A stretch of 64,000 nucleotides of DNA from a virus. Its lineage: Duplodnaviria; Caudoviricetes. This document shows positions 4,937 to 46,772 of this stretch, piece after piece (within the stretch, counting starts at the first letter, position 1; the number at the start of each line of letters is the position of its first letter). The position numbers were made by a program, and so were the translations under genes. Location: the IMG/VR virus record IMGVR_UViG_3300002835_000001, positions 224,001 to 288,000 of that record; one strand, written 5' to 3'. The notes below the pieces were generated by a model. That model was not told where the DNA came from, searched no databases, and saw only the letters and a program-made list of their open reading frames with translations.

Positions 4937-5251
4937 TTAAATTAATTTTTGTTTCACCCAATAATATAACATACCGGTTGCGTACCTGTGTAAGTTTTTT
5001 GCTTCTTTCTTTAAAATTAAGTTCCCAAGTTGTATTAAATGTGAACGATTATATAAATCTACACTAACAATAAACCCTCCATCGGATTTTTCATACGTTG
5101 TCTCTTTCATTGGTGGAATATACTTTCCCTCATCGTCGAGTTTCAACGTCCTAATCATTTCGGTCTTATTCATCTTACATTCTATACCTCTAGAATGTAT
5201 CATTTTTTCTAAGACATCTAACCTTAATTTAGTGTAGTCCACTTCACTCAT
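4937..5251 (-). CDS. Hypothetical protein; probable start 5251 (MSEVDY)
   Basis: The ORF-track extension to 5329 overlaps the MCP terminator; minus-strand TATATTTG promoter at 5256-5263. Confidence 0.6.
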   Translation of the reverse strand: MSEVDYTKLRLDVLEKMIHSRGIECKMNKTEMIRTLKLDDEGKYIPPMKETTYEKSDGGFIVSVDLYNRSHLIQLGNLILKKEAKNLHRYATGMLYYWVKQKLI

Positions 5252-9612: not shown

Positions 9613-9804
9613 ATGATAATAATTGACGTAACAAAAGAACGTAGTATCGAAACAGCATTAAGAACCTATAAGAATAGAGTTCAAAAAACTAAGCAAATTC
9701 AAAAATTGAGGGAAAGGAAGGAATTTGTTAAACCTTCAGTCACTAAAAGGAAGGAAGTTTTAAAAGCGGTATATGTTCAACAAATAAAAAATGGTCTTAA
9801 TTAA
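9613..9804 (+). CDS. rpsU: Ribosomal protein bS21
   Basis: 63 aa; IETALRTYK, LRERKEFVKPSV..R, KAVY; Bacteroidota-type. Confidence 0.93.
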   Translation: MIIIDVTKERSIETALRTYKNRVQKTKQIQKLRERKEFVKPSVTKRKEVLKAVYVQQIKNGLN

Positions 9805-21265: not shown

Positions 21266-21304
21266 ATACTTTACTTTTACTCAAAGTTATATATATTTAT
21301 ATCA

Positions 21305-21376
21305 ATGAAGGTTCTCTTTGTCGATTACCTTTTCGTTTTTTATAAGTAAGTGGGGTTGAACCCACCGAAAGACCTT
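21305..21376. ncRNA. Candidate structured small RNA (element B)
   Basis: Intergenic; AAGGT/ACCTT closing stem; GTGGG-gttga-ACCCAC hairpin; shares sequence blocks with 45125-45207. Confidence 0.4.
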
Positions 21377-21406
21377 AAACCCCAACAACTCGTTGGGGTT
21401 TTTTTT
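21377..21406 (+). terminator. Intrinsic terminator
   Basis: AAACCCCAAC-aactc-GTTGGGGTTT followed by T-run. Confidence 0.85.
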
Positions 21407-21450
21407 ATTAAATTTTGCGTTACCAAATGTTTTTCGTATATTTACATTAT

Positions 21451-21690: not shown

Positions 21691-22119
21691 ATGGATACAA
21701 ATACAGAAAAACAAGGTGATTTAATACTTCTTAGAGGTGTTCCGGGTTCGGGTAAAACAACATTCGCTAATGTTATATTACAACAACCAAATAACAACCC
21801 ACAAGAAATATTGTCTGCGGATGATTTTTTTGAGGGTGAAAATGGTGAATATAATTTTGACCCAACAAAATTAAAAGAAGCTCACAACTATTGTCAATTT
21901 AGGTGTTCCGAAAGAATGAGACAACAAAAGGTGAGAATTGTGGTTGCAAATACATTTACACAAGAATGGGAAATGGATGAATATTTTAAAATGGCCGAAA
22001 GGTACAATTATAGAGTTCATACAATAATTGTAGAGAATAGACATGGTAATGAAAATATTCACGGAGTTCCAAAAGATAAACTTCAACAAATGAAGAATAG
22101 GTTTGAAATTAAATTATAG
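21691..22119 (+). CDS. P-loop polynucleotide kinase-like protein (AAA_33/N4BP2-type)
   Basis: LLRGVPGSGKTT, SADDFF, IVVANTF, HGVP motifs. Confidence 0.85.
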   Translation: MDTNTEKQGDLILLRGVPGSGKTTFANVILQQPNNNPQEILSADDFFEGENGEYNFDPTKLKEAHNYCQFRCSERMRQQKVRIVVANTFTQEWEMDEYFKMAERYNYRVHTIIVENRHGNENIHGVPKDKLQQMKNRFEIKL

Positions 22120-26756: not shown

Positions 26757-26788
26757 AAAAAAAGGGGGTATTACACCCCCTTTTTTTT
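26757..26788. terminator. Intrinsic terminator
   Basis: A7-GGGGGT-att-ACACCCCC-T8. Confidence 0.75.
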
Positions 26789-35307: not shown

Positions 35308-35958
35308 TTATTTTTTATCCATTAATTTATTTATTAGTTTTTCACTAGCCTTTTTGAGAGCATTACTTAAAGATGTCTGATTAAATGAACCTCCTTCGTC
35401 AACAATAAGTGTTGACATAGAAACTTCAGATGATGACTCCTCAACAATAAGTTCTTTTTCTTTTTTACCGTCTTTTGTTAATGTTCCTTTCAATCTAATA
35501 ACCACTTCTTCCTCACCAGAATGGAAAACCGATATGTTCTTCTTTGTTGTAAGAACGTCTAAATAAACAATTTGTACTTTTAATTTGTATGGAGATGATG
35601 CCGATAAATCGTAACCCTTTTCTTGTAAAAACTCTTCTAATATGTTTTTAACCCCAAATGCTAAATTTCTATTACCTGCTAGTTTACCAATTTTAACCTC
35701 ATTGGTTACACTTTCGACCCAAATGTGGTCGTCGGCATCGTACCAAATATTTTCAGGGGAGTTTTTGAATGTACCATCGATTCTCCATTCAATCCAATTT
35801 ATTACGTTTCTCTGTAATTCATGTTTACCTGAAAATTCTAAATAAACGAAGAATAATTGAAAACACAGTGCGAATGCAATCCAAAACCCAACTAATGATA
35901 AAAATATCATAGCAAGTTTGTCGCCAATGTTAATAGTAAGTGATTTGATTTTTTCCAT
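35308..35958 (-). CDS. Membrane-anchored alpha/beta protein (CsgG/LptE-like fold suspected)
   Basis: N-terminal TM; LAFGVKNILEE.L...GY, SNALKKA C-terminal helix. Confidence 0.5.
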   Translation of the reverse strand: MEKIKSLTINIGDKLAMIFLSLVGFWIAFALCFQLFFVYLEFSGKHELQRNVINWIEWRIDGTFKNSPENIWYDADDHIWVESVTNEVKIGKLAGNRNLAFGVKNILEEFLQEKGYDLSASSPYKLKVQIVYLDVLTTKKNISVFHSGEEEVVIRLKGTLTKDGKKEKELIVEESSSEVSMSTLIVDEGGSFNQTSLSNALKKASEKLINKLMDKK

Positions 35959-36344: not shown

Positions 36345-36419
36345 AGGGTAATGGACTAATGGCTAAGTCACTTGCTTTGGGAGCAAGGCATCATGGAGGT
36401 TCGAGTCCTCTTTACCCTA
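36345..36419 (+). tRNA. tRNA-Pro(UGG)
   Basis: AGGGTAA/TTACCCT acceptor; CTTGC-TTTGGGA-GCAAG; TTCGAGT loop. Confidence 0.9.
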
Positions 36420-36424
36420 CAAAC

Positions 36425-36496
36425 GCTGATTTAGCTCAGAGGCAGAGCACGAAGCTGTTAACTTCGGGGTCCGGATATCGTAATTCTGAATCAGCG
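36425..36496 (+). tRNA. tRNA-Asn(GUU), atypical T-loop
   Basis: GCTGATT/AATCAGC; CGAAG-CTGTTAA-CTTCG; T-loop reads ATCGTAA. Confidence 0.8.
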
Positions 36497-36501
36497 CAAA
36501 C

Positions 36502-36573
36502 ATCCGTGTAGTTCAATCGGTAGAACGTCGGTCTCCAAAACCGAAAATGAAGGTTCGAGTCCTTACATGGGTG
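36502..36573 (+). tRNA. tRNA-Trp(CCA)
   Basis: TCGGT-CTCCAAA-ACCGA; canonical T arm. Confidence 0.9.
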
Positions 36574-36580
36574 CAATAAT

Positions 36581-36660
36581 ACCCGAGTGGTGGAATGGTA
36601 TACACAGCGGTCTTAGAAACCGTGTCGAAAGGCGTGTCGGTTCGAGTCCGACCTTGGGTA
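36581..36660 (+). tRNA. tRNA-Leu(UAG)
   Basis: ACCCGAG/CTTGGGT; GCGGT-CTTAGAA-ACCGT; variable arm with GAAA loop. Confidence 0.92.
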
Positions 36661-36665
36661 CATAT

Positions 36666-36736
36666 TGTCCTTTGGTATAACGGTAGTACAAATGTTTTTG
36701 GAGCATCTAGTTGAGGTTCGAATCCTTGAGGGACAA
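36666..36736 (+). tRNA. tRNA-Gln(UUG)
   Basis: TGTCCTT/AGGGACA; loop TTTTGGA. Confidence 0.88.
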
Positions 36737-36738
36737 CT

Positions 36739-36811
36739 GTGTTTATAGTGTTAATGGTTAGCACGTCAGTTTGTGGTACTGATAGTATGGGTTCAAATCC
36801 CATTAAACACC
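36739..36811 (+). tRNA. tRNA-His(GUG), no encoded G-1
   Basis: GTGTTTA/TAAACAC, C73; TCAGT-TTGTGGT-ACTGA. Confidence 0.9.
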
Positions 36812-36873
36812 CTTTGGTTATTAGTGTTCCAAATCAAACAAAAAAATGGACTTTTGGAACATTAATAATATAT

Positions 36874-36948
36874 TGCGGGATGTGTAGAAAATGGTTATCT
36901 CGTCGGTCTCATAAGCCGAAGTTCTGGGTTCAAGTCCCAGTCCCGCAA
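36874..36948 (+). tRNA. tRNA-Met(CAU), initiator-like sequence
   Basis: TGCGGGA/TCCCGCA; TCGGT-CTCATAA-GCCGA; irregular D arm. Confidence 0.8.
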
Positions 36949-37084
36949 CTACAGAAGCAAAGTATTTTAAGTAAAATTTTGCAAAGTAAAAAAAAAGTTT
37001 TACATTCGTACCATAATTAAATGGGGTGAGATGTATTACCTATAGTTCCCATAAATGGGGTCATAAATTATTAATTAATTAAGT

Positions 37085-37567
37085 ATGAAAAAAAGATTAT
37101 TATTTATCGTGTTGTTTATCATAGTAACAACATCAACAATTAAAACAGAAGGAAAAACAATTAAATTAAACAATAACCAAATACCAAAAATAAGTTATGT
37201 AAATTTATATAATACTATTTTATCGATGGGTATTCTATATCCAGATATTGTATTTGCCCAAGCGGTGTTAGAATCTGGAAGTTTTAAATCAAATTTAGCA
37301 ATATTAAATAATAATATTTTTGGTATGAGACACCCAAAAATCCGTGAAACAACCGCAATAGGTGAAGGAAAGAGTGGATATGCAAAATACAAAACGTGGG
37401 TACAAAGTGTTGAGGATTACCAACATTGGCAGGATTTTTTTCTAAAAGATAAGGAAATTTCAAGACAAGAATATCTTAATCTATTAGGAAGAATATACGC
37501 AACTGATAAAAATTATATATTAAGATTAAATCGTAAAATTAAAGAATATAAACACATATTAGGTTAA
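37085..37567 (+). CDS. GH73 glucosaminidase (peptidoglycan hydrolase) with N-terminal signal/anchor
   Basis: QAVLESG, NNIFGM, Y..W..SVEDY, YATDKNY. Confidence 0.88.
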   Translation: MKKRLLFIVLFIIVTTSTIKTEGKTIKLNNNQIPKISYVNLYNTILSMGILYPDIVFAQAVLESGSFKSNLAILNNNIFGMRHPKIRETTAIGEGKSGYAKYKTWVQSVEDYQHWQDFFLKDKEISRQEYLNLLGRIYATDKNYILRLNRKIKEYKHILG

Positions 37568-37718
37568 AAATAAATTTGACAATTATTTTTTAATTTAAAG
37601 TATTGTTCATATATTTGTTAAACAATGGTTGATTGGGATTTAACGGGGCTAGCGAATAGCGAGAAACGCCAATTATAAAAACAGATGTCCACACCCCCAT
37701 CTTCTGTTTTCCATAGTA

Positions 37719-37791
37719 GCCCGAATAGCTCAGTTGGTAGAGCAGCTGATTTGTAATCAGCAGGTCGTCAGTTCGAGTCTGACTTTGGGCT
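37719..37791 (+). tRNA. tRNA-Thr(UGU)
   Basis: GCCCGAA/TTTGGGC; GCTGA-TTTGTAA-TCAGC. Confidence 0.93.
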
Positions 37792-37794
37792 CAA

Positions 37795-37927
37795 CAGGTG
37801 ACGACGGTGGTGGAACCCCACTGTCTATAAATCTCAACACCCGCCTTGATTCGCGGTATTATAGCGGTGAGAGTAGAGTTATTACAAGTCGGGAGTAATT
37901 AACCCAATGACGAAAGTGTAACCACAG
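37795..37927 (+). ncRNA. Candidate structured ncRNA
   Basis: GC-richer non-coding gap with several hairpins; 16-mer shared with the large RNA. Confidence 0.4.
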
Positions 37928-37982
37928 ATATAGAAATATATTTGTTATGATGTACGAAAGGGTACGAAAAACCTGTTATTTT

Positions 37983-38055
37983 GGGATTGAGGTCAAACGG
38001 TTAAGATGTCGCCCTGTCACGGCGCACGGAGCGGGTTCAACTCCCGTCAGTCCCG
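37983..38055 (+). tRNA. tRNA-Asp(GUC)
   Basis: GGGATTG/CAGTCCC; CGCC-CTGTCAC-GGCG. Confidence 0.88.
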
Positions 38056-38057
38056 CA

Positions 38058-38258
38058 ATGAGTAAGAAGTACTCAGTAAGTTTGGTAACGTTCTTTCAAG
38101 ATGTTATGGTTGTCTCCTACCACGGCCTTAAGAGGGGGTCTCGGAATATGGGGGTAACAATCCCACCGAGTATGTTTGACTTTTTAAGCGGTAAGACGCG
38201 TTGGGTTTTTCAATAGGAAAAACTGTGAATATCTACTCACTGGGACTTCAGGTGGGAC
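38058..38258 (+). ncRNA. Candidate structured ncRNA between tRNA-Asp and tRNA-Ser
   Basis: CTCGG..CCGAG enclosing GGG-gtaacaa-TCCC; GTTTTTC-aatag-GAAAAAC; GTGA..TCAC. Confidence 0.4.
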
Positions 38259-38262
38259 AATT

Positions 38263-38348
38263 GGAAGGATGGCAGAGTTGGTCTATCGCGTCGGTCTTGA
38301 AAACCGAAGTACTGAAAGGTACCGTGGGTTCGAATCCTACTCCTTCCG
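38263..38348 (+). tRNA. tRNA-Ser(UGA)
   Basis: GGAAGGA/TCCTTCC, G73; TCGGT-CTTGAAA-ACCGA; long variable arm. Confidence 0.93.
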
Positions 38349-38353
38349 CATTT

Positions 38354-38425
38354 GCTCGGTTCGACTAGTGGTTAGGTCGCGTCCCTTTCACGGACGTAGC
38401 ACGGGTTCGAATCCCGTACCGAGTA
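38354..38425 (+). tRNA. tRNA-Glu(UUC)
   Basis: GCTCGGT/ACCGAGT; CGTCC-CTTTCAC-GGACG. Confidence 0.93.
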
Positions 38426-38442
38426 CTGAATATAATAAAAAC

Positions 38443-39084
38443 ATGGAGACAAAGATTATCAACGGAGATTTTAGAGATTGTGTGGTACCTGATGGTTTAG
38501 TGATAACTGACCCTCCATACAACCAAGAATATTCTTATAACGAATATAAGGATAAACTTACTGAAGAAGAATATATTGAACTACTATCTAAGATACCAAC
38601 TCCATGTGTAATCATTCATTATCCTGAAGAAACAATTAATTTGTTACCAAAAGCAATTAACGCAAAATGTGAACAAGTGGTTTGTTGGGTTTATAATTCT
38701 AACACGGGAAAACAAAGTCGATTAATTTCTTGGTGGGGATGTAAACCTGATTTTAAAAAGGTTAGGCAAGAATATAAAAATCTAAAAGACAAAAGAATTC
38801 AGAAAAGAATTGCTGAGGGTAAAACCGGAGCTAAACTTTATGATTGGTGGGAAATCAATCAAGTAAAAAATGTTAGCAAGGAAAAAACCGAACACCCTTG
38901 TCAAATACCCGAAGAATTAATTAGACGAATTATTCTTACAACGGCACAATCAAATCAAACAATCATTGATGTTTTCGGTGGTAGTGGTACAACATCAAAA
39001 GTCGCTAAAGAATTAGGATTTAATTCGATTAGTTACGAAATTGATGAGAAGTATTGTGAAATTATTAAGAATAGAATTACATAA
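38443..39084 (+). CDS. Amino-DNA methyltransferase (N4C/N6A, beta class); start reassigned to 38443
   Basis: TDPPYN catalytic motif precedes HPCQIP..IDVFGGSGTT SAM motif. Confidence 0.92.
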   Translation: METKIINGDFRDCVVPDGLVITDPPYNQEYSYNEYKDKLTEEEYIELLSKIPTPCVIIHYPEETINLLPKAINAKCEQVVCWVYNSNTGKQSRLISWWGCKPDFKKVRQEYKNLKDKRIQKRIAEGKTGAKLYDWWEINQVKNVSKEKTEHPCQIPEELIRRIILTTAQSNQTIIDVFGGSGTTSKVAKELGFNSISYEIDEKYCEIIKNRIT

Positions 39085-39166
39085 AAACTTTTACTTTTTT
39101 ATATTAAGATATTGATTTACAATATTTTATTTTGTATATTTGTTATATTACAAATATTTATAATAT

Positions 39167-39469
39167 ATGATAGATAAAATCACATTATCGTTAATGTTAT
39201 TTTTTAACACATTAACGTCATCTATCGACCCAAGTCTTTCTGATGAAAGAAAGTCTGTCAATCAAATAAAAAAACAGATTAAATCTCTTGAAAGAAAAAT
39301 TGAATGGGTTGAAGTAACAGATGAGAATTACGCTAGCAGGGCCGTCAAAACCAAAGGAATCACGGACGAGATTACCAAATTAAATGGTGAAATTGTAAAG
39401 ATTGAGAAGGTTGCAAATTTAAAAGATAAATGGGCTAAGGAAGATTCCTTAACCAAATCGAAAAAATGA
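39167..39469 (+). CDS. Exported/anchored coiled-coil protein
   Basis: Hydrophobic N-terminus, heptad pattern. Confidence 0.6.
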   Translation: MIDKITLSLMLFFNTLTSSIDPSLSDERKSVNQIKKQIKSLERKIEWVEVTDENYASRAVKTKGITDEITKLNGEIVKIEKVANLKDKWAKEDSLTKSKK

Positions 39470-39915
39470 AAAAAATTTTTTTAGTGCTAACGTTACTTTT
39501 GGGAGTGGAAGTCGTAGCAAATGGACAAGAGTGGTTTATAACTGCCACTCGAAAAGGCGGTCCATCAGATGGTTATATAACTGGTGGTTTTATGAAAAAA
39601 GGTTGGGGGTTTTATGCTGGTCTTCCTTATGGTGAAATAGGGGGTCCGAATGGTGGAATTTCAATTCCTCCTGGTGTTAATACCAAAACGGGAAACGTAT
39701 CTGATAACATGAAGTTCGGTGTTCTTAGACAATTAAAAGAAGATAAAGCAATTGTTGGATTTGGATTACAACCAACACTTGGTGGTAATAAACCAAATTT
39801 TCTTATAATGTACAATCCACTTAGGCCAAGTACCGTTATAAATTTATGGACAATTGGTAATTTAGTCGGTAGTGATTTCACATTAGGACTTGGTTTATCG
39901 TATAAAGTAAAATAA
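39466..39915 (+). CDS. Small exported beta-barrel-like protein
   Basis: Signal ..ANG/Q; Gly-rich strands; terminal LGLGLSYKVK. Confidence 0.65.
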   Translation: MKKIFLVLTLLLGVEVVANGQEWFITATRKGGPSDGYITGGFMKKGWGFYAGLPYGEIGGPNGGISIPPGVNTKTGNVSDNMKFGVLRQLKEDKAIVGFGLQPTLGGNKPNFLIMYNPLRPSTVINLWTIGNLVGSDFTLGLGLSYKVK

Positions 39916-39932
39916 ACATTTTTAGTTAAGTT

Positions 39933-39974
39933 AAAACCCTGAACAAACTAAAAAAAATTGTTCAGGGTTTTTTT
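39933..39974 (+). terminator. Intrinsic terminator
   Basis: AAAACCCTGAACAA...TTGTTCAGGGTTTTTTT. Confidence 0.85.
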
Positions 39975-39991
39975 ATACCATTTTTTTTTAT

Positions 39992-40015
39992 TATATTTGA
40001 ATTATAGTTCTTTGA
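39992..40015 (+). promoter_or_regulatory. Host-type promoter plus boxA-like element before tRNA-Leu
   Basis: TATATTTG 39992-39999; AGTTCTTTGA 40006-40015. Confidence 0.6.
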
Positions 40016-40034
40016 TTTATTGGAAAAACAAAAT

Positions 40035-40119
40035 GCCTGAGTGATGAAATGGTATACATGACAGACTTAAAATCTGTTGAGCAGAAACGCTCGTGCGGGT
40101 TCAAGTCCCGCCTCAGGTA
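40035..40119 (+). tRNA. tRNA-Leu(UAA)
   Basis: GCCTGAG/CTCAGGT; ACAGA-CTTAAAA-TCTGT; variable arm. Confidence 0.93.
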
Positions 40120-40120
40120 C

Positions 40121-40232
40121 AAATGTAATGATTCAGAAATGAGTGACGGAACGGACGCTACGTATGAAATGGAAACTTTTGAAGCACGTACAAAGGTGCT
40201 GATTTGAAACAAACCGTACAGACATTACATTT
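40121..40232 (+). ncRNA. Candidate ncRNA closed by a perfect 10-bp stem
   Basis: AAATGTAATG (40121-40130) pairs with CATTACATTT (40223-40232); inner AGCAC..GTGCT hairpin. Confidence 0.5.
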
Positions 40233-40271
40233 AAACACTATCGTTCTTTGAAAATAAAGGAGAAAATTAAT

Positions 40272-40520
40272 ATGGATATATTATCATTTATTTTAGGAAT
40301 GTCAATAGTTGTGGTTATCGCAGTTGCGGTAGTTGCGGTTATTGCCTTTGTTAAGGTTAATAAAACTAACAAAGAAATTGAAACGATTCATACCATTATG
40401 GGTAATGAATCCGAAAGGTCGCATAGAGAGCGTGAAGAAGCAATTCAAAATGTTTATAGAACATTAGATTCACGACTTGATAAACTTGAGAGTAAAATTA
40501 CAACAAGCCGTAAGGCATAA
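40272..40520 (+). CDS. Single-TM coiled-coil protein; probable start 40272
   Basis: MDILSFILGMSIVVVIAVAVVAVIAF TM; flanked by inverted repeats. Confidence 0.7.
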   Translation: MDILSFILGMSIVVVIAVAVVAVIAFVKVNKTNKEIETIHTIMGNESERSHREREEAIQNVYRTLDSRLDKLESKITTSRKA

Positions 40521-40560
40521 CGATTAAATAAAAACTTTCAAAGACGATAGTGTTATTTTT

Positions 40561-40634
40561 GGTTCCGTAGCTCAGTTGGATAGAGCAACATCCTTCTAAG
40601 ATGTGGGTCTTTGGTTCGAATCCAAACGGGATCA
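40561..40634 (+). tRNA. tRNA-Arg(UCU)
   Basis: GGTTCCG/CGGGATC; ACATC-CTTCTAA-GATGT. Confidence 0.93.
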
Positions 40635-40687
40635 CGTAATCATTGAAAAAAACGATATCAGATTTTATCGTTAGATTAAACGATAAT

Positions 40688-40761
40688 GGACTTGTAGCTC
40701 ACTAGGTTAGAGCGGCACACTCATAATGTGAAGGTAATAGGTTCGATTCCTATCTGGTCCA
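40688..40761 (+). tRNA. tRNA(CAU): Ile2 or elongator Met
   Basis: GGACTTG/CTGGTCC; CACA-CTCATAA-TGTG; identity not resolvable by eye. Confidence 0.8.
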
Positions 40762-40888
40762 CTATTTAAAGTATGGGATTCCGATGGAAGTCCGCAAGAA
40801 AAATAGATGTTTTTCATCCATCAAAAAATCATCATAGAGGCCGCTAAATCGAGTTAGTGAAAATCTACATTCTCTGTGATGATCATAT

Positions 40889-41426: not shown

Positions 41427-42222
41427 TTGGCCGCCTATGGTCAACAAAATAAACCACGAAAGTGGGATAAAGTGATTTGGTTTGGTTAAATCAAGTTGCG
41501 GTTTCAGCAATGGAACTTGAGTAGGCAAACAGAATATCGTTGAACCTTAATTACCGAGGGTAACACTGTAGGGAAAGTGGTTTAATGACTAAGCAATCCG
41601 AGTTGTTTGGTTGAGGTGGGAACACCAATAAGAATAATCTGTAGAGTTATTACAAGAAGTAGGACGTCCAATCTTACAATTGTGTGACTCAATATGATGG
41701 GAATCTTAAAACCGAAAGGTATGGTGAAGTACGAGTGGTGTCGTTATCATCCTTAATTGAACTCTACCAAGGGTTTAGTTTTGAAGGGGTCCAAAAATAT
41801 GGTAGCAGGGATGTTACAGAGAGTAGTTTAGTATCGAGTTGTTCAAAAGATAACTTGGCTGGCAGACGAGCCACTACTTTCCAAATTCGGAACCAATAAC
41901 AATTGTTAATTACGGTTTAACAACTCAAACAACAAGGAAAAGTGCTCGTCAGTCGTTGGAGACAGGTGACTACACAGTCGAGAGAGGTTCTCGGCCACAA
42001 AGGGTCCAAACCCAATGTGATTTTTAAGAAAGTTCTCTAAGTTCGCAAGACTTAGTCGGGGTGGCAACCTCGAAGAGTAATGAGTATTAAAAGAGTATCT
42101 AACGACTTAAGGATTGGTTAATCTAATTGACCGTCGCTGATTGGTACTACTCAAAAGGTAGTGGATAAGAGAAGAAAAGATAATGTCTCTAAAGTCAATC
42201 GTTAAATGGTGTAATCTCAGCC
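41427..42222 (+). ncRNA. Large ornate ncRNA, GOLLD-like (~800 nt)
   Basis: No credible ORF, GC-richer than the flanks, GNRA hairpins, several long-range 7-bp pairings, beside a tRNA array, own promoter; family call from size, context and recalled 3' motifs. Confidence 0.72.
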
Positions 42223-42358
42223 TTTTCTTTTTTTAATTTTGTGTAAAATTAAATGGTGGAATCTAACGATATTAAAAACCGTTCGGCCCTAAAAAATTAG
42301 TCATAAGAAATTATGGCTTTTTTTGTGCTTTTAATAAAATTTTACTTATATTTGTTTT

Positions 42359-43111
42359 ATGAGAATAGTTTGTATATCAGACACACATAGTCTTCAGGAT
42401 TTAATGTCTCACCCAATCCCCAAGGGTGATATATTGATACATTCAGGGGATATTTCAAATAAAGGAGGTGAAAAGGATGTCACCAATTTTGTACATTGGT
42501 TTCAAAACATTGAGGGTTTTGATTCTAAGGTATTCATTGCCGGTAATCACGATTTTTGTTTTGAAAAAGTTAATCAACCTCATCACAAAGGTGATTATGA
42601 TTGGTTACATAATTTAATGTCGCCTGAGAATCTATCACAATCTAATGTTGAGTATTTGGAGGATAATTCATTTGTAATAGAGTCACCTGAATTTTCAAAA
42701 CTAATTAAAATTTACGGAAGTCCTTGGCAACCAAATTTTTACGATTGGGCATTTAATTTACCGAGAATGGGTGATGAACTTAAATCTAAATGGGATATGA
42801 TTCCTGATGATGTTAATATTTTAATCACTCACGGACCCCCAAATGAGATTAGAGATTTTGTAAGTAACTGGAGACAAGGTGATATGAATGTTGGTTGTGA
42901 ATTGTTAAGACACCAATTAGATAACAGAATTAAACCAGTACTACACGTATTTGGACATATCCACGGAGCATATGGTGCGGCACTAATTAAGGATACTCTT
43001 TATGTAAACGCATCAACTTGTACTGAAAGATACGAACCAACAAATAAACCAATCATTGTTGACTTAACTGAAGTTGATGGTAAATTAATTGCAACATATG
43101 TCGAAGAATAA
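42359..43111 (+). CDS. Calcineurin-like metallophosphoesterase
   Basis: CISDTH, IHSGD, AGNHD, ITHGPP, FGHIH; TATATTTG 4 nt upstream. Confidence 0.92.
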   Translation: MRIVCISDTHSLQDLMSHPIPKGDILIHSGDISNKGGEKDVTNFVHWFQNIEGFDSKVFIAGNHDFCFEKVNQPHHKGDYDWLHNLMSPENLSQSNVEYLEDNSFVIESPEFSKLIKIYGSPWQPNFYDWAFNLPRMGDELKSKWDMIPDDVNILITHGPPNEIRDFVSNWRQGDMNVGCELLRHQLDNRIKPVLHVFGHIHGAYGAALIKDTLYVNASTCTERYEPTNKPIIVDLTEVDGKLIATYVEE

Positions 43112-43781
43112 CCAACCAATTAGTGTTGTAATATCAACACGAAAAATTGATGATACGTATTTAAAACACGTAGAAAAAATGTTTTCACACCCTAAGACTC
43201 AAATATTAATTTATGAGAATGATGGTGTCGATTCTTTACCCAAAATTTACAATTTAGGATTACAAGAATCCGAACATGACATTGTTGTGTTTATGCATGA
43301 TGATCTTATTTTGGAAACAACAAACATTACACCGAAAGTTGTTAGATTATTTAATGAGAATCCTGAATATGGTATAATTGGATTGGCTGGTACCGATAAT
43401 CTAATAAGTGGGATGTGGTGGCAAGACAAAGAGTCGATGTATGGAGTTGTTGGTCACGAACACCAAGGTAAACGACATGTAAATCACTATTCAAAGAAAT
43501 CATTTGGCGATAAACCAAAGGAGGTTGCTATTGTTGATGGTTTATTCATGATGATACATAAAAAAAGAATTAAACACACATTCAACGAAGAGTTTAGTGG
43601 GTTTCATTTTTACGATTTACCGATATGTGTGGAAAACCACTTAGATGGTGTTAAAGTTGGTGTGACAACCAAAATTATGGTAACACATAAATCGATTGGT
43701 ATGGTAAATAAACAATGGGAAAAAAATAAGTTGTTTTTTGAGGCATTATATGAAAAACACTTCCCTTTAAGGGTTAACTGA
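43098..43781 (+). CDS. Glycosyltransferase family 2-like protein
   Basis: YN.GL..S..DIVVFMHDDL, GIIGLAG, V.IVDGLFM, FHFYD. Confidence 0.85.
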   Translation: MSKNNQPISVVISTRKIDDTYLKHVEKMFSHPKTQILIYENDGVDSLPKIYNLGLQESEHDIVVFMHDDLILETTNITPKVVRLFNENPEYGIIGLAGTDNLISGMWWQDKESMYGVVGHEHQGKRHVNHYSKKSFGDKPKEVAIVDGLFMMIHKKRIKHTFNEEFSGFHFYDLPICVENHLDGVKVGVTTKIMVTHKSIGMVNKQWEKNKLFFEALYEKHFPLRVN

Positions 43782-43823
43782 TTTTAGTACAATAACGGAT
43801 ATTTATATATAAAACAAACAATT

Positions 43824-44126
43824 ATGATGACAGTATTTTTAATTTTAATAGTTCTAGTAATAGCTGGAGCTGTAACATTTTTCCTAATGAAAAAAGGTAA
43901 AATCGAAGACAAAAACGGTAATAACATTCCTGATGTGGTTGAAGAAAAAATTGAGGATGTTAAAGAATTGGTTAATGTAGTTAAAGAAAGAGCAACAAGA
44001 GTCGTTGAAGAAACTAAAGATGTTGTTGAAGCGGCTAAAAAAGTTGTTAAACAATCTAAAGACGTAGTAGATGCAGCTAAGGGCAATGGTGCTCGTAAAG
44101 GAAGAAAACCATCTACTAAAAAGTAA
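43824..44126 (+). CDS. Single-TM protein with amphipathic repeat tail
   Basis: N-terminal TM; DKNGNNIPD; VVE(E/A)xK 11-mer-like repeats. Confidence 0.7.
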   Translation: MMTVFLILIVLVIAGAVTFFLMKKGKIEDKNGNNIPDVVEEKIEDVKELVNVVKERATRVVEETKDVVEAAKKVVKQSKDVVDAAKGNGARKGRKPSTKK

Positions 44127-44160
44127 ATTATTATACACATAGAAATTTAATGGGTTAAAA

Positions 44161-44207
44161 TTTGTTTTTTAACCCTTTTTTATCTATCTTTGTAAAAGTT
44201 CTTTAAA
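44161..44207 (+). promoter_or_regulatory. Full Bacteroidota-type promoter plus boxA-like element before tmRNA
   Basis: TTTG 44161-44164, 20-nt spacer, TATCTTTG 44185-44192; AGTTCTTTAAA 44197-44207. Confidence 0.78.
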
Positions 44208-44211
44208 ATAT

Positions 44212-44617
44212 GGGGATGCTTGGAATTGATTTCAGGTATCAGGGGTAAATGGCACGTAGTCAGACTTCATCTATGACTTAAATCTATGGTGGAAAATTTT
44301 AGACGGCAACGTTTATAAAAACATGGAAATTGCAGGTTTACTTGCAACTTCTAACGTAGAAGTAGCCTAAGGCAAAACTACAATCGGGTCGATGTACATA
44401 TAACCTAGGAACAGAAGTACTCAAGGTGTAATACCACCCAAAGATGTATTAGGAGTCTCGTTCAGGGGTCTACTCCAACACAAGTGAACCCGACACAGTT
44501 ATTGGTAACGATGTCAAAATAGGAACCAATTATTTGTCTGTTGTGAACTAACAGAATAAACGTGTAGTCATTTATTGTTGAACCGGGAAGACCGGAGTTC
44601 GAGTCTCCGCATCTCCA
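44212..44617 (+). ncRNA. ssrA: tmRNA
   Basis: GGGGATG/CATCTCC acceptor with G3-U70, A73; TTCGAGT T-loop; tag ORF 44305-44370; adjacent smpB. Confidence 0.93.
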
Positions 44618-44620
44618 CTC

Positions 44621-44652
44621 AAAGGGGTTTCATTAATTGGAACCCCTTTTTT
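44621..44652 (+). terminator. Terminator after tmRNA
   Basis: AAGGGGTTTC-attaattg-GAACCCC followed by T-run. Confidence 0.8.
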
Positions 44653-44682
44653 ATTTTAAAAAATTATACATATATTTGTAAT

Positions 44683-45120
44683 ATGAAAAATGTCATTGAT
44701 AATCGAAAAGCTTATTTTAATTATAATATCGAGGATAAGTACACCGCAGGTATACAATTAATTGGTACTGAAATAAAGTCCATTCGTGAAGGTAAATTAA
44801 ATTTTAACGATTCATTTTGTTTATTCATCAATGGTGAATTATTTGTCCGAGGGATTTACATATCAGATTATTCTTTTGGTGTAAAACATGAAAATGTTAG
44901 AGATAGGAAATTACTACTAACCAAAAAGGAATTAAAGAAAATACAGGAATCAATTAAAGAAAAGGGATATACGATTGTACCATTAAAAGGGTACTTTACG
45001 GATACGAATTATTTTAAAATAGAGATTGGTATTGGTAAGGGTAAAAAGTCCTACGATAAGAGAGAAACAATAAAAAAAAGGGACTCTGAACGTGAGGTTA
45101 GAAGATTGGTGACCACATAA
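44683..45120 (+). CDS. smpB: SsrA-binding protein SmpB; start reassigned to 44683
   Basis: NRKAYFNY, AGIQLIGTEIKSIR, RDRKLLL, GKGKKSYDKRETIK. Confidence 0.95.
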   Translation: MKNVIDNRKAYFNYNIEDKYTAGIQLIGTEIKSIREGKLNFNDSFCLFINGELFVRGIYISDYSFGVKHENVRDRKLLLTKKELKKIQESIKEKGYTIVPLKGYFTDTNYFKIEIGIGKGKKSYDKRETIKKRDSEREVRRLVTT

Positions 45121-45124
45121 ACGA

Positions 45125-45207
45125 ACAAAAGGTCCGAAGACCCTTTGCCGAGATTAAAAACACCTCCTTTTCGTTTAGATAAGTTATCGTTTAACGGCGA
45201 CCAAACC
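45125..45207. ncRNA. Candidate structured small RNA (element A) containing an anti-SD-like sequence
   Basis: GGTC-cgaa-GACC; TTGCCG/CGGCGA; AACACCTCCTTT at 45159-45170. Confidence 0.45.
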
Positions 45208-45234
45208 AATTAAACTCTACTTATAAATATCACG

Positions 45235-46143
45235 TTATACATATCTTTGCGCTAAAAGTTTTAACATTCCCATACCCATTGTTCCACCAAACATTCCACC
45301 ATCATCTTCCTGGCTTTTATCTCTACCTTCGATTTTGGCTAAATCACTTTCTGATGTATTTGAATTAACCATTTCAGAAAATTTTTCATTTTTTGAGAAA
45401 CGTTCCAATTCATTAGGGTCCCCCATTCTTCTTTCAAAATCTGTTAAATTTGGAATACCTAAAATAGCCAATAAATTATTAGCAACTATAAAATTTCTAA
45501 TATATTGTCTTTTTGCTCTACTACCTAAATAAGTTATATTATACCAGTTAGATAACCATGTTTTTGGTGCATATCCTTTTTTAACAATATATTGTGCTAA
45601 TTTTTCTTCTCTAAAAAATTTAGTTAGTCCCCCACCAATTTTACCGGTACTAACAACCGCACTTGCAATCCCTTTAGGTCTTTCCAATAATTTAGTAAGA
45701 ACCGACTTATGTTGAGTTAAGGAAATTTGAATTTGTTTTGCAAACGTAGGTGAAACTTCATCAACCTGAGAAATTAATTTATTTACTGTCTTACTATCTG
45801 CGTATTTACCTAATTTACTATATTGTTCAGCAACCTTAGGGTTCTTTCTCAAGAATGAAACCATTTCATCGGTTCCCTTTAATGCATTTTTTGCTAACGG
45901 AGATTTAAATATTTTTATCAAAGGTTTTGCTATAAAATCACCAACTGTTGGTATTAAAGCAAATAACATTAAACCAGCGTATAACCATTCTCTTTTGTAA
46001 CAATAATAAATAATCAAAGCTAAATCGGCAACTTCACCGATAACGGGAACAAATCCCACTATCATTAAAGTATTCTCAATCCAGTTTTCATTTATGACCT
46101 GTTTTGATTCTAATAACTCTTCTTTAGTGTAATATTTTTTCAT
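45235..46143 (-). CDS. Putative internal/ejected virion protein with pre-toxin-TG-like N-terminal motif
   Basis: VGFVPVIGEVADLA..Y...A.L..FALIPTVGD. Confidence 0.6.
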   Translation of the reverse strand: MKKYYTKEELLESKQVINENWIENTLMIVGFVPVIGEVADLALIIYYCYKREWLYAGLMLFALIPTVGDFIAKPLIKIFKSPLAKNALKGTDEMVSFLRKNPKVAEQYSKLGKYADSKTVNKLISQVDEVSPTFAKQIQISLTQHKSVLTKLLERPKGIASAVVSTGKIGGGLTKFFREEKLAQYIVKKGYAPKTWLSNWYNITYLGSRAKRQYIRNFIVANNLLAILGIPNLTDFERRMGDPNELERFSKNEKFSEMVNSNTSESDLAKIEGRDKSQEDDGGMFGGTMGMGMLKLLAQRYV

Positions 46144-46772
46144 TATCCGTGTATTAAATTACAAAATTTTGCTCCAGCAATTTCACCAAGATTAGAAGCT
46201 TCTATTGATTCACCAAATAAATTACCAACACCTAATTTAACAACCTCACTTCCACCTGGAGATACTCGCCCACCAATATATGAACCAATACTTTTCATTA
46301 TGGCATCACATAGAGCTGGCATACTATCGGATGCCATACAAGATGACATATCTTTAAATGGTTTTAATAAATTAAGTGGGTCAAATCTTGCAAATGTTGA
46401 AGCCACAAATTCCGACGCCTCACCTTTTAACCCTAAATTACTAAGTAACCATCTTATTGCGTATTCTTTAATTGACGTCATTATAGTTCCTTTTGCAATC
46501 TTACCCCAGTCAGCATTTTTAACTTGTGATAATGCATCATCACCAGCTGCAACTAATGAACTTGCGTCTTGTTCGTTTAAAAAACTTTCAATCTCATCCA
46601 TTTCATACCCCTCACTTATTAAGTTTGAGGAAGCTATTAACACTCTAGTTAAGAATTCATCTTTACTAGATGAACCCCTAACTATTGAAAAAGATTCTTG
46701 AAAAATTTCTTTTCTTGTACGTTGTAAATTTTCACTTACAACCTTTCTAATATCTACTTTTATATTACTCAT
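46143..46772 (-). CDS. Hypothetical helical protein, putative virion internal
   Basis: VSE/ISE/LNE motifs; coupled to neighbours. Confidence 0.6.
   Translation of the reverse strand: MSNIKVDIRKVVSENLQRTRKEIFQESFSIVRGSSSKDEFLTRVLIASSNLISEGYEMDEIESFLNEQDASSLVAAGDDALSQVKNADWGKIAKGTIMTSIKEYAIRWLLSNLGLKGEASEFVASTFARFDPLNLLKPFKDMSSCMASDSMPALCDAIMKSIGSYIGGRVSPGGSEVVKLGVGNLFGESIEASNLGEIAGAKFCNLIHG

Follow-up and report, generated by a model that had tools for sequence, protein, structure and literature searches.

Genomic Context of sRNA1

The window analyzed here, meaning the whole stretch of 64,000 nucleotides, is an AT-rich piece (∼32% G+C) of a large phage. Within it, the gene for SmpB and an oppositely oriented gene of 302 codons are separated by a gap of 114 bp that contains the 12-mer AACACCTCCTTT, located at 45159–45170 on the plus strand just as originally predicted. 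This 12-mer occurs once in the window, even when one mismatch is allowed, and it matches the last 12 bases of the 16S rRNA in four Flavobacterium genomes, in agreement with its earlier description as a copy of the Bacteroidota anti-Shine-Dalgarno stretch (anti-SD). On the minus strand the gap reads AAAGGAGGTGTT followed by TTTAATCTCGG, and neither ATG, GTG, nor TTG lies at a spacing suited to initiation. The TATTTAT at 45223–45229, previously noted as a motif pointing into the gap, was also correctly read and corresponds to the motif GATATTTAT at 45231–45223 on the minus strand. Downstream of this motif, and ending in an intrinsic terminator, lies a predicted small RNA, here called sRNA1. Its anatomy, its neighbors, and the other features of the window discussed below are listed in Table 1.

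Table 1. Features of the window, with positions counted from its first nucleotide.
Feature	Positions	Strand	Evidence or remarks
Phage bS21 gene	9613–9804	+	Pfam S21, E 6.6e-10
sRNA2 candidate, ORF-less	21293–21407	+	ATATTTAT motif, pyrimidine-rich 5′ region, covarying hairpin (GUGGGGUUGAACCCAC), strong terminator
tRNA gene cluster (∼15 genes)	36345–40762	+	
GOLLD RNA	within 41500–42230	+	Rfam match of 316 bits at 41819–42223
tmRNA gene	44212–44620	+	5′ of smpB; convergent with sRNA1
smpB	44683–45120	+	Pfam SmpB, E 2e-53; convergent neighbor of sRNA1
sRNA1, predicted small RNA, ∼95 nt	45120–45217	−	Ends inferred from motif and terminator
Intrinsic terminator of sRNA1: hairpin with UUCG loop, then U-rich tail	45120–45149	−	Terminator scan
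Near-invariant AUCUCG, 5–13 nt after the SD	45149–45154	−	RNAalifold
A-rich tract and extended SD, AAACGAAAAGGAGGUGUUU / AAAGGAGGUGUU	45158–45176	−	16S-tail complementarity
Invariant GAUAA linker, then variable spacer	45184–45188	−	Alignment
P1, 5′ hairpin with conserved loop UGGUUUGGUCRCC	45189–45217	−	Covariation
Promoter-like phage motif GATATTTAT	45223–45231	−	6–9 nt before first helix
Gene of 302 codons, no known family	45235–46143	−	Convergent with tmRNA gene and smpB
All sites of GATATTTAT	685, 18669, 30181, 36065, 43798, 45231, 50129, 50867, 60862		

A blastn comparison of positions 44200–46200 with GenBank phages returned a single match of 70 bp, within smpB. The phage-encoded bS21 named in the original prediction was recovered as a clear Pfam hit. 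Its gene sits 35 kb from sRNA1 and carries a host-type TAnnTTTG promoter element without a Shine-Dalgarno (SD) sequence, and its product aligns with host bS21 free of gaps, with Tyr54 kept. Retention of Tyr54 in the bS21 of this phage group has been described before (Chen et al., 2022; PMC9723584), in a study that makes no mention of tmRNA or small RNAs.

Predicted Structure and Strand of sRNA1

RNAalifold applied to the sRNA1 alignment predicted three helices, namely the 5′ hairpin P1, a weak helix P2, and the terminator hairpin. Across the alignment of 52 sequences, standard pairs filled 96.5% of the helix cells vs. 42–60% when the partners were slid by one to three columns, and double changes were found in 55 helix cells compared with 14.6 in shuffled alignments, none of 500 shuffles reaching 55. 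Six of the 10 pairs of P1 changed on both sides, with 94.8% of its cells paired and G–U pairs frequent, and compensatory changes in the terminator were seen in the relatives L002, L003, and L009 and in others. P2, the pairing of GAGGU with AUCUC, is a weak predicted helix of 5 bp that showed no covariation, and the SD stretch is predicted to be mostly single-stranded.

Several signals point to the minus strand as that of the RNA. There the consensus fold reached −21.7 kcal/mol, compared with −1.1 kcal/mol on the plus strand, and the single-sequence minimum free energy was better on the minus strand in every one of the 52 copies (means of −29.6 vs. −19.6 kcal/mol). Many helix positions are occupied by G–U pairs, which become C–A mismatches on the plus strand. 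The hairpin at 45124–45149 scored as a terminator, with its U-run on the minus strand only, and together with the covariation and the orientation of GATATTTAT these features identify the minus strand as that of the RNA. Conservation extends over ∼70 nt outside the terminator. A reading of sRNA1 as the initiation region of a coding gene was rejected, given that the 52 copies have no canonical start, frame-breaking insertions and deletions, and variable stops. We predict sRNA1 to be an independent small RNA gene on the minus strand, without coding function.

A Family of Homologous RNAs in Large Phages

Relatives were initially identified by their SmpB and by the protein of 302 codons, and in them conservation of the gap exceeded that of the adjoining ends of the flanking genes. 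Viral contigs were then scanned with two patterns independently. The first was built on the SD block and the hairpin loop (37 stretches), the second on the upstream motif and the hairpin loop only, with the SD region unconstrained, and the family thereby grew to 52 distinct copies, from large phages that are uncultured. All 26 copies retrieved with the SD-independent pattern contained AAGG(A/G)GG. Across the family the SD core was present in 52 of 52 copies, including a few GGGGG variants that still pair with CCUCC through G–U wobble, and the motif GATATTTAT was invariant in those copies whose retrieval did not require it. The conserved block is edged by variable flanks in the 52 copies, and its own upstream motif is kept beside unrelated neighbors.

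The expectation that the 12-mer would be conserved downstream of smpB in related bS21-encoding phages was borne out for a core of 8–9 nt and failed for the full 12 bases. Only AAGGAGGT is conserved in at least 90% of copies, and position 45161 (C on the plus strand, G on the minus strand) is either G or A among relatives, so that the full 12-mer is not invariant. The element travels with its own promoter-like motif and terminator and not with smpB, being kept in L009, where smpB is missing.

The linkage between tmRNA and sRNA1 is frequent, not universal, with a convergent tmRNA gene found within 2.5 kb of the sRNA1 3′ end at 20 of the 39 loci with enough flanking sequence. In L009, a 324-kb relative, no smpB lies at 5030–5075, between the tmRNA gene and sRNA1. 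The relatives L001, L004, and L005 carry smpB, and ARAGORN detected no tmRNA gene nearby.

Bacterial assemblies yielded a single true copy, carried by a contig of 7.4 kb from the bin of a Flavobacterium metagenome-assembled genome (MAG). A search of the same assemblies with the A-type pattern gave nothing, and six other matches there, scattered over unrelated phyla, were set aside as chance. The Flavobacterium MAG contig, taken with the work of Chen et al. (2022; PMC9723584), is the basis for assigning a Flavobacterium-like host, and the phages carrying sRNA1 are probably large freshwater phages that encode bS21 and infect Flavobacterium-like Bacteroidota. Among 17 related viral records carrying sRNA1 and considered in full, 13 encode bS21, including all seven that are at least 60% complete; this co-occurrence may reflect shared ancestry only and not functional coupling.

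Rfam 15 returned no match at gathering score over positions 45080–45280, with the best E-values of 0.36–2.1 lying far below the cut-offs, and our literature search found no published description of the family. Even if the ribosome is not its target, sRNA1 represents a new family of small RNAs that is well supported, has a probable partner, described below, and belongs to giant phages of an ecologically abundant group.

Complementarity to the 16S rRNA Tail

In Flavobacterium the 16S rRNA ends in GGAACACCUCCUUU. This 14-nt tail was used for the scans of the window and its genes, and the 13-nt tail GAACACCUCCUUU for comparisons within the family and with rpsU. Of the ∼50,000 18-mers scored on both strands of the window, the one containing the sRNA1 SD paired most strongly (−19.6 kcal/mol), with a near tie at a site in a coding region and a terminator stem next. 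The other strong sites of the window, at 21727 and 42454, each within a gene, and at 26767, in a terminator stem, were treated as chance. Taken by itself the lone 12-mer is insignificant, since 0.53 chance matches are expected at one mismatch or fewer; it gains weight by lying in the strongest tail-complementary 18-mer of the window and by the recurrence of its SD core in 52 homologous copies. The original observation that no gene in the window is preceded by a comparable SD holds, as none of the 79 predicted genes had an upstream site below −10 kcal/mol. The median for these upstream sites was −1.5 kcal/mol vs. −3.3 kcal/mol for random 22-mers, an avoidance of SDs by the phage genes that fits a Bacteroidota host.

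Bases 45158–45170 pair with the 13-nt tail at −19.0 kcal/mol. Duplex energies across the family ranged from −12.4 to −22.2 kcal/mol (median −15.5), and 31 Flavobacterium rpsU leaders scored in the same way gave −15.3 to −18.2 kcal/mol. With the cost of opening the SD, ∼3.9 kcal/mol, taken into account, the net values were −11.6 kcal/mol for the family median and −14.0 kcal/mol for the window. The resemblance to rpsU goes beyond energy. Host rpsU leaders read ..TTAACGAGAGGAGGTGTCTATATTATG, sRNA1 reads AAACGAAAAGGAGGTGTT, then 5–13 nt, then AUCUCG, and the arrangement AACGA–purines–GGAGGUGU is common to both. Judging from the layout of the host leaders, the AUC of sRNA1 would lie roughly where the host AUG sits.

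The base opposite C1533 of the 16S rRNA is G in the window and A in most copies, a difference that argues against selection for maximal pairing with the 16S rRNA and that separates even the window from its close relative L001, whose SmpB is 94% identical. The common variant of sRNA1, GGAGGUAUUC, would be a perfect match to the 16S tail GGAAUACC, and such AAUACC-type tails are frequent in Chitinophagia, Sphingobacteriia, and Saprospiria. Among the tails examined (L176–L255), many from these three classes and some from Bacteroidales end in GGAAUACCUCCUU and not in GGAACACC; the former is an exact complement of the sRNA1 variant seen most often, GGAGGUAUUCC. Flavobacterium tails are nearly all AACACC among the matches listed (97 matching genomes), with AATACC in G034. 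Because Flavobacterium almost always has AACACC and because close relatives differ at the variable base, covariation of sRNA1 with the host tail is unproven.

A Candidate Partner RNA, sRNA2

A second ORF-less element in the window, sRNA2, has the ATATTTAT motif in common with sRNA1 and is complementary to it in two blocks. Positions 21328–21338 can pair with AAACGAAAAGG, on one flank of the sRNA1 SD, and positions 21316–21324 with UCGGCAAAG, which comprises the second half of AUCUCG and the bases following it. In the predicted duplex most of GGAGGU and the spacer are left unpaired, only the first two G's being covered. sRNA2 was kept at 77–93% identity in nine of the 17 related records. In the ten same-phage pairs compared, the bipartite duplexes had energies of −20 to −28.5 kcal/mol (z −3.5 to −6.6), and in divergent lineages each sRNA1 paired best with its own partner, non-cognate combinations being weaker. 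In one lineage-specific case, a run of four A's in sRNA1 is shortened to three, and the opposing run of four U's in sRNA2 is likewise three long. Ranked by energy alone, the sRNA2 site was fourth of ∼32,000 windows. The host rpsU mRNA was rejected as a target of sRNA2, the predicted pairing of −13.4 kcal/mol being no better than the −13.1 kcal/mol obtained for shuffled sequences. Given where its two blocks pair, sRNA2 may switch a decoy formed by sRNA1 on or off.

A Possible Ribosome Decoy

In Flavobacteriia, the proteins bS21, bS18, and bS6 keep the 16S tail buried, and virtually no gene other than rpsU, which encodes bS21, has an SD, that of rpsU being very strong (Jha et al., 2021, PMC7797042; McNutt et al., 2023, PMC9976891). 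Subunits (30S) lacking bS21, the only ones to use an SD, preferentially translate rpsU, by which bS21 is restored (McNutt et al., 2023; PMC9976891). The original prediction offered two functional readings of the locus, a plus-strand mimic of the anti-SD that would pair with the SD of host rpsU mRNA, and a minus-strand, start-less SD that would capture 30S subunits with an exposed anti-SD. The former found no support, all structural signals being on the minus strand, and the latter agrees with all of the sequence evidence gathered here. Our preferred reading, held with somewhat less than even confidence, is therefore that sRNA1 may mimic the initiation region of host rpsU and titrate 30S subunits whose anti-SD is exposed.

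Under the decoy reading, 30S subunits free of bS21 would dock on sRNA1 much as on rpsU, through a helix of up to 13 bp. Because AUC stands where AUG would be and the terminator hairpin follows this pseudo-start immediately, where it would block accommodation in the mRNA channel, the subunit would be held in a dead-end complex. Resynthesis of host bS21 would be damped and the autoregulation of rpsU blunted, and phage bS21, made from a message without an SD, would fill the ribosomes. Such a decoy would be an answer to rpsU autoregulation, which McNutt et al. (2023; PMC9976891) proposed to be a host counter-measure to bS21 exchange by phages. A wider version of the decoy reading, which we consider rather doubtful, makes sRNA1 and sRNA2 a two-RNA anti-ribosome device, in which sRNA1 would capture bS21-free 30S subunits and so break the sole SD-dependent feedback and sRNA2 would time or limit the capture.

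Genes for bS21 are widespread in aquatic phages, and both their function and the displacement of host bS21 are standing questions. A start-less copy of the rpsU site in a conserved phage RNA gives concrete form to the idea of McNutt et al. (2023; PMC9976891). Should the idea hold, sRNA1 would be the first decoy RNA from nature whose target is the ribosomal anti-SD, here that of a specialized ribosome population, and would show clearly that a virus can single out such a subpopulation.

Alternative Explanations

Two alternatives keep sRNA1 as a base-pairing RNA of the minus strand and differ in its target. It might be an ordinary base-pairing sRNA whose partner is sRNA2 or a phage or host mRNA, with the ribosome not a target at all and with the SD-like core conserved for the P2 hairpin or for a three-way junction with sRNA2; we regard this as somewhat unlikely. 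The conservation of the core could serve RNA–RNA structure, because GGAGGU is predicted to pair with AUCUC in P2 and, through its leading two G's, with sRNA2. The strength and z-scores of the bipartite duplexes, the weaker pairing of non-cognate partners from divergent lineages, the compensated change in A's and U's, and the motif common to the two RNAs all favor such a partnership. However, sRNA2 reaches GGAGG at those two G's only and its site ranks behind three others by energy, and both the exact 13-nt match to the 16S tail and the resemblance to rpsU leaders would have to be put down to coincidence. The lack of covariation in P2, in an RNA whose P1 and terminator covary freely, points to a constraint on GGAGGU from outside the RNA, which it fits without proving. 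Alternatively, sRNA1 might pull the 16S tail out of the pocket formed by bS21, bS18, and bS6, and so loosen host bS21 and aid its exchange or alter the choice of mRNAs. This improbable variant draws on the same tail complementarity as the decoy, and an extended SD has been discussed as possibly needed to dislodge the tail (McNutt et al., 2023; PMC9976891). It would take roughly one RNA per ribosome, however, and the phage bS21, having kept Tyr54, should bury the tail again.

The remaining explanations fare worse. The conserved block could be an element acting at the DNA or transcriptional level, such as a bidirectional terminator or a protein-binding site with no RNA function, as its place between convergent genes and the terminator score of its hairpin might suggest; yet the conservation of ∼70 nt beyond that hairpin, a covariation that is strand-specific and includes G–U pairs, and the persistence of the upstream motif next to unrelated neighbors make this quite improbable. 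The plus-strand reading, in which an RNA such as the smpB 3′ UTR would act as an anti-SD mimic masking the SD of host rpsU, can point to a plus strand that carries 12 of the 12 last bases of the 16S rRNA and to possible readthrough from smpB, the hairpin having no U-run in that direction. We nevertheless give it very little credence, considering that there is no conserved plus-strand fold, that the G–U positions turn into C–A mismatches, that the element persists without smpB in L009, and that motif and terminator both point the other way. An equally slight chance attaches to translation from the SD, either of a tiny peptide from the AUC or of a 52-codon ORF at 45051–45209 on the minus strand. 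The strong SD with an AUC 5–13 nt downstream and the presence of that ORF among the listed frames speak for it. On the other side, spacer and linker lengths vary by 1–2 nt among copies, which rules out both a conserved peptide and the ORF of 52 codons; stop positions vary as well, leaving 6 to 18 residues after the AUC, the would-be coding part is the covarying terminator stem, and the ORF has no Pfam match.

Comparison With Known Systems

The closest known counterpart of sRNA1 is the extended SD of rpsU in Flavobacteriales (PMC7797042; PMC9976891), with which it has in common strong pairing to the 16S tail, below about −13 kcal/mol (−19.0 kcal/mol for sRNA1). Both have the AACGA–purines–GGAGGUGU arrangement preceded by an A-rich tract, and both occur in genomes whose other genes lack SDs. 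Unlike the rpsU element, sRNA1 is phage-encoded, has neither start codon nor ORF, is followed by a terminator hairpin, and stands alone with a promoter-like motif and an extra conserved 5′ hairpin. The position that defines the rpsU element, in front of a bS21 ORF, is not the position of sRNA1, which would thus act like a copy of the rpsU extended SD without being one.

Among other regulatory RNAs, 6S RNA mimics an open promoter for RNA polymerase, and CsrB and RsmZ titrate CsrA through SD-like GGA motifs. The logic proposed for sRNA1 is the same, in that an RNA imitates the ligand of a machine in order to sequester it; the target would differ, being the 16S anti-SD of a ribosomal subpopulation reached by RNA–RNA pairing. 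In addition, sRNA1 has a single site rather than many, resembles none of these RNAs in sequence or structure, and has no Rfam match. In sRNA/anti-sRNA sponge pairs, exemplified by the prophage RNA AgvB acting on GcvB, conserved single-stranded parts are complementary, as they are in sRNA1 and sRNA2. Here, unlike in AgvB/GcvB, both RNAs are encoded by the phage and share one promoter-like motif, and the pairing brackets the SD mimic. SD-sequestering hairpins are also found in the expression platforms of riboswitches and thermometers, to which the predicted weak 5-bp pairing of GAGGU with the downstream AUCUC bears a likeness; sRNA1 differs from these in having no downstream gene, no recognized aptamer, and no covariation in this hairpin.

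The Upstream Motif and Other Features of the Window

Nine copies of the motif GATATTTAT are spread over the window. Most of them precede an ATG of the same strand by a few to 30 nt, and two of the genes concerned resemble a tail tape-measure protein and an endolysin. Its position before start codons and the nature of these two genes make it plausible that GATATTTAT is a phage promoter, possibly a late one. It is unlike the host-type TAnnTTTG element before the phage bS21 gene and may therefore represent a phage-specific promoter class. At one site the motif is followed by ∼95 nt without a listed ORF (36065–35959, minus strand) before a gene that starts at 35958; this stretch might serve as a long leader or encode another small RNA.

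The tRNA cluster, tmRNA, smpB, GOLLD, and bS21 together give this phage an unusually large set of translation-related genes. The tag encoded by the tmRNA ends in ..VEVA or ..VAVA, the usual ending being ..LAA, and ARAGORN called tags of 8 or 21 residues in the tmRNAs of relatives. Contigs from four lake metatranscriptome runs, compared with positions 41500–46500, covered GOLLD RNA and tmRNA at high depth; none extended over 44673–45173, and such contigs cannot show a 95-nt RNA either way. Depths for the phage tmRNA were in the hundreds. Depth was very high over the Rfam match of GOLLD and over the 300 nt upstream of it, and since the RNA contigs also span this upstream stretch, the GOLLD RNA probably extends 5′ of the Rfam model.
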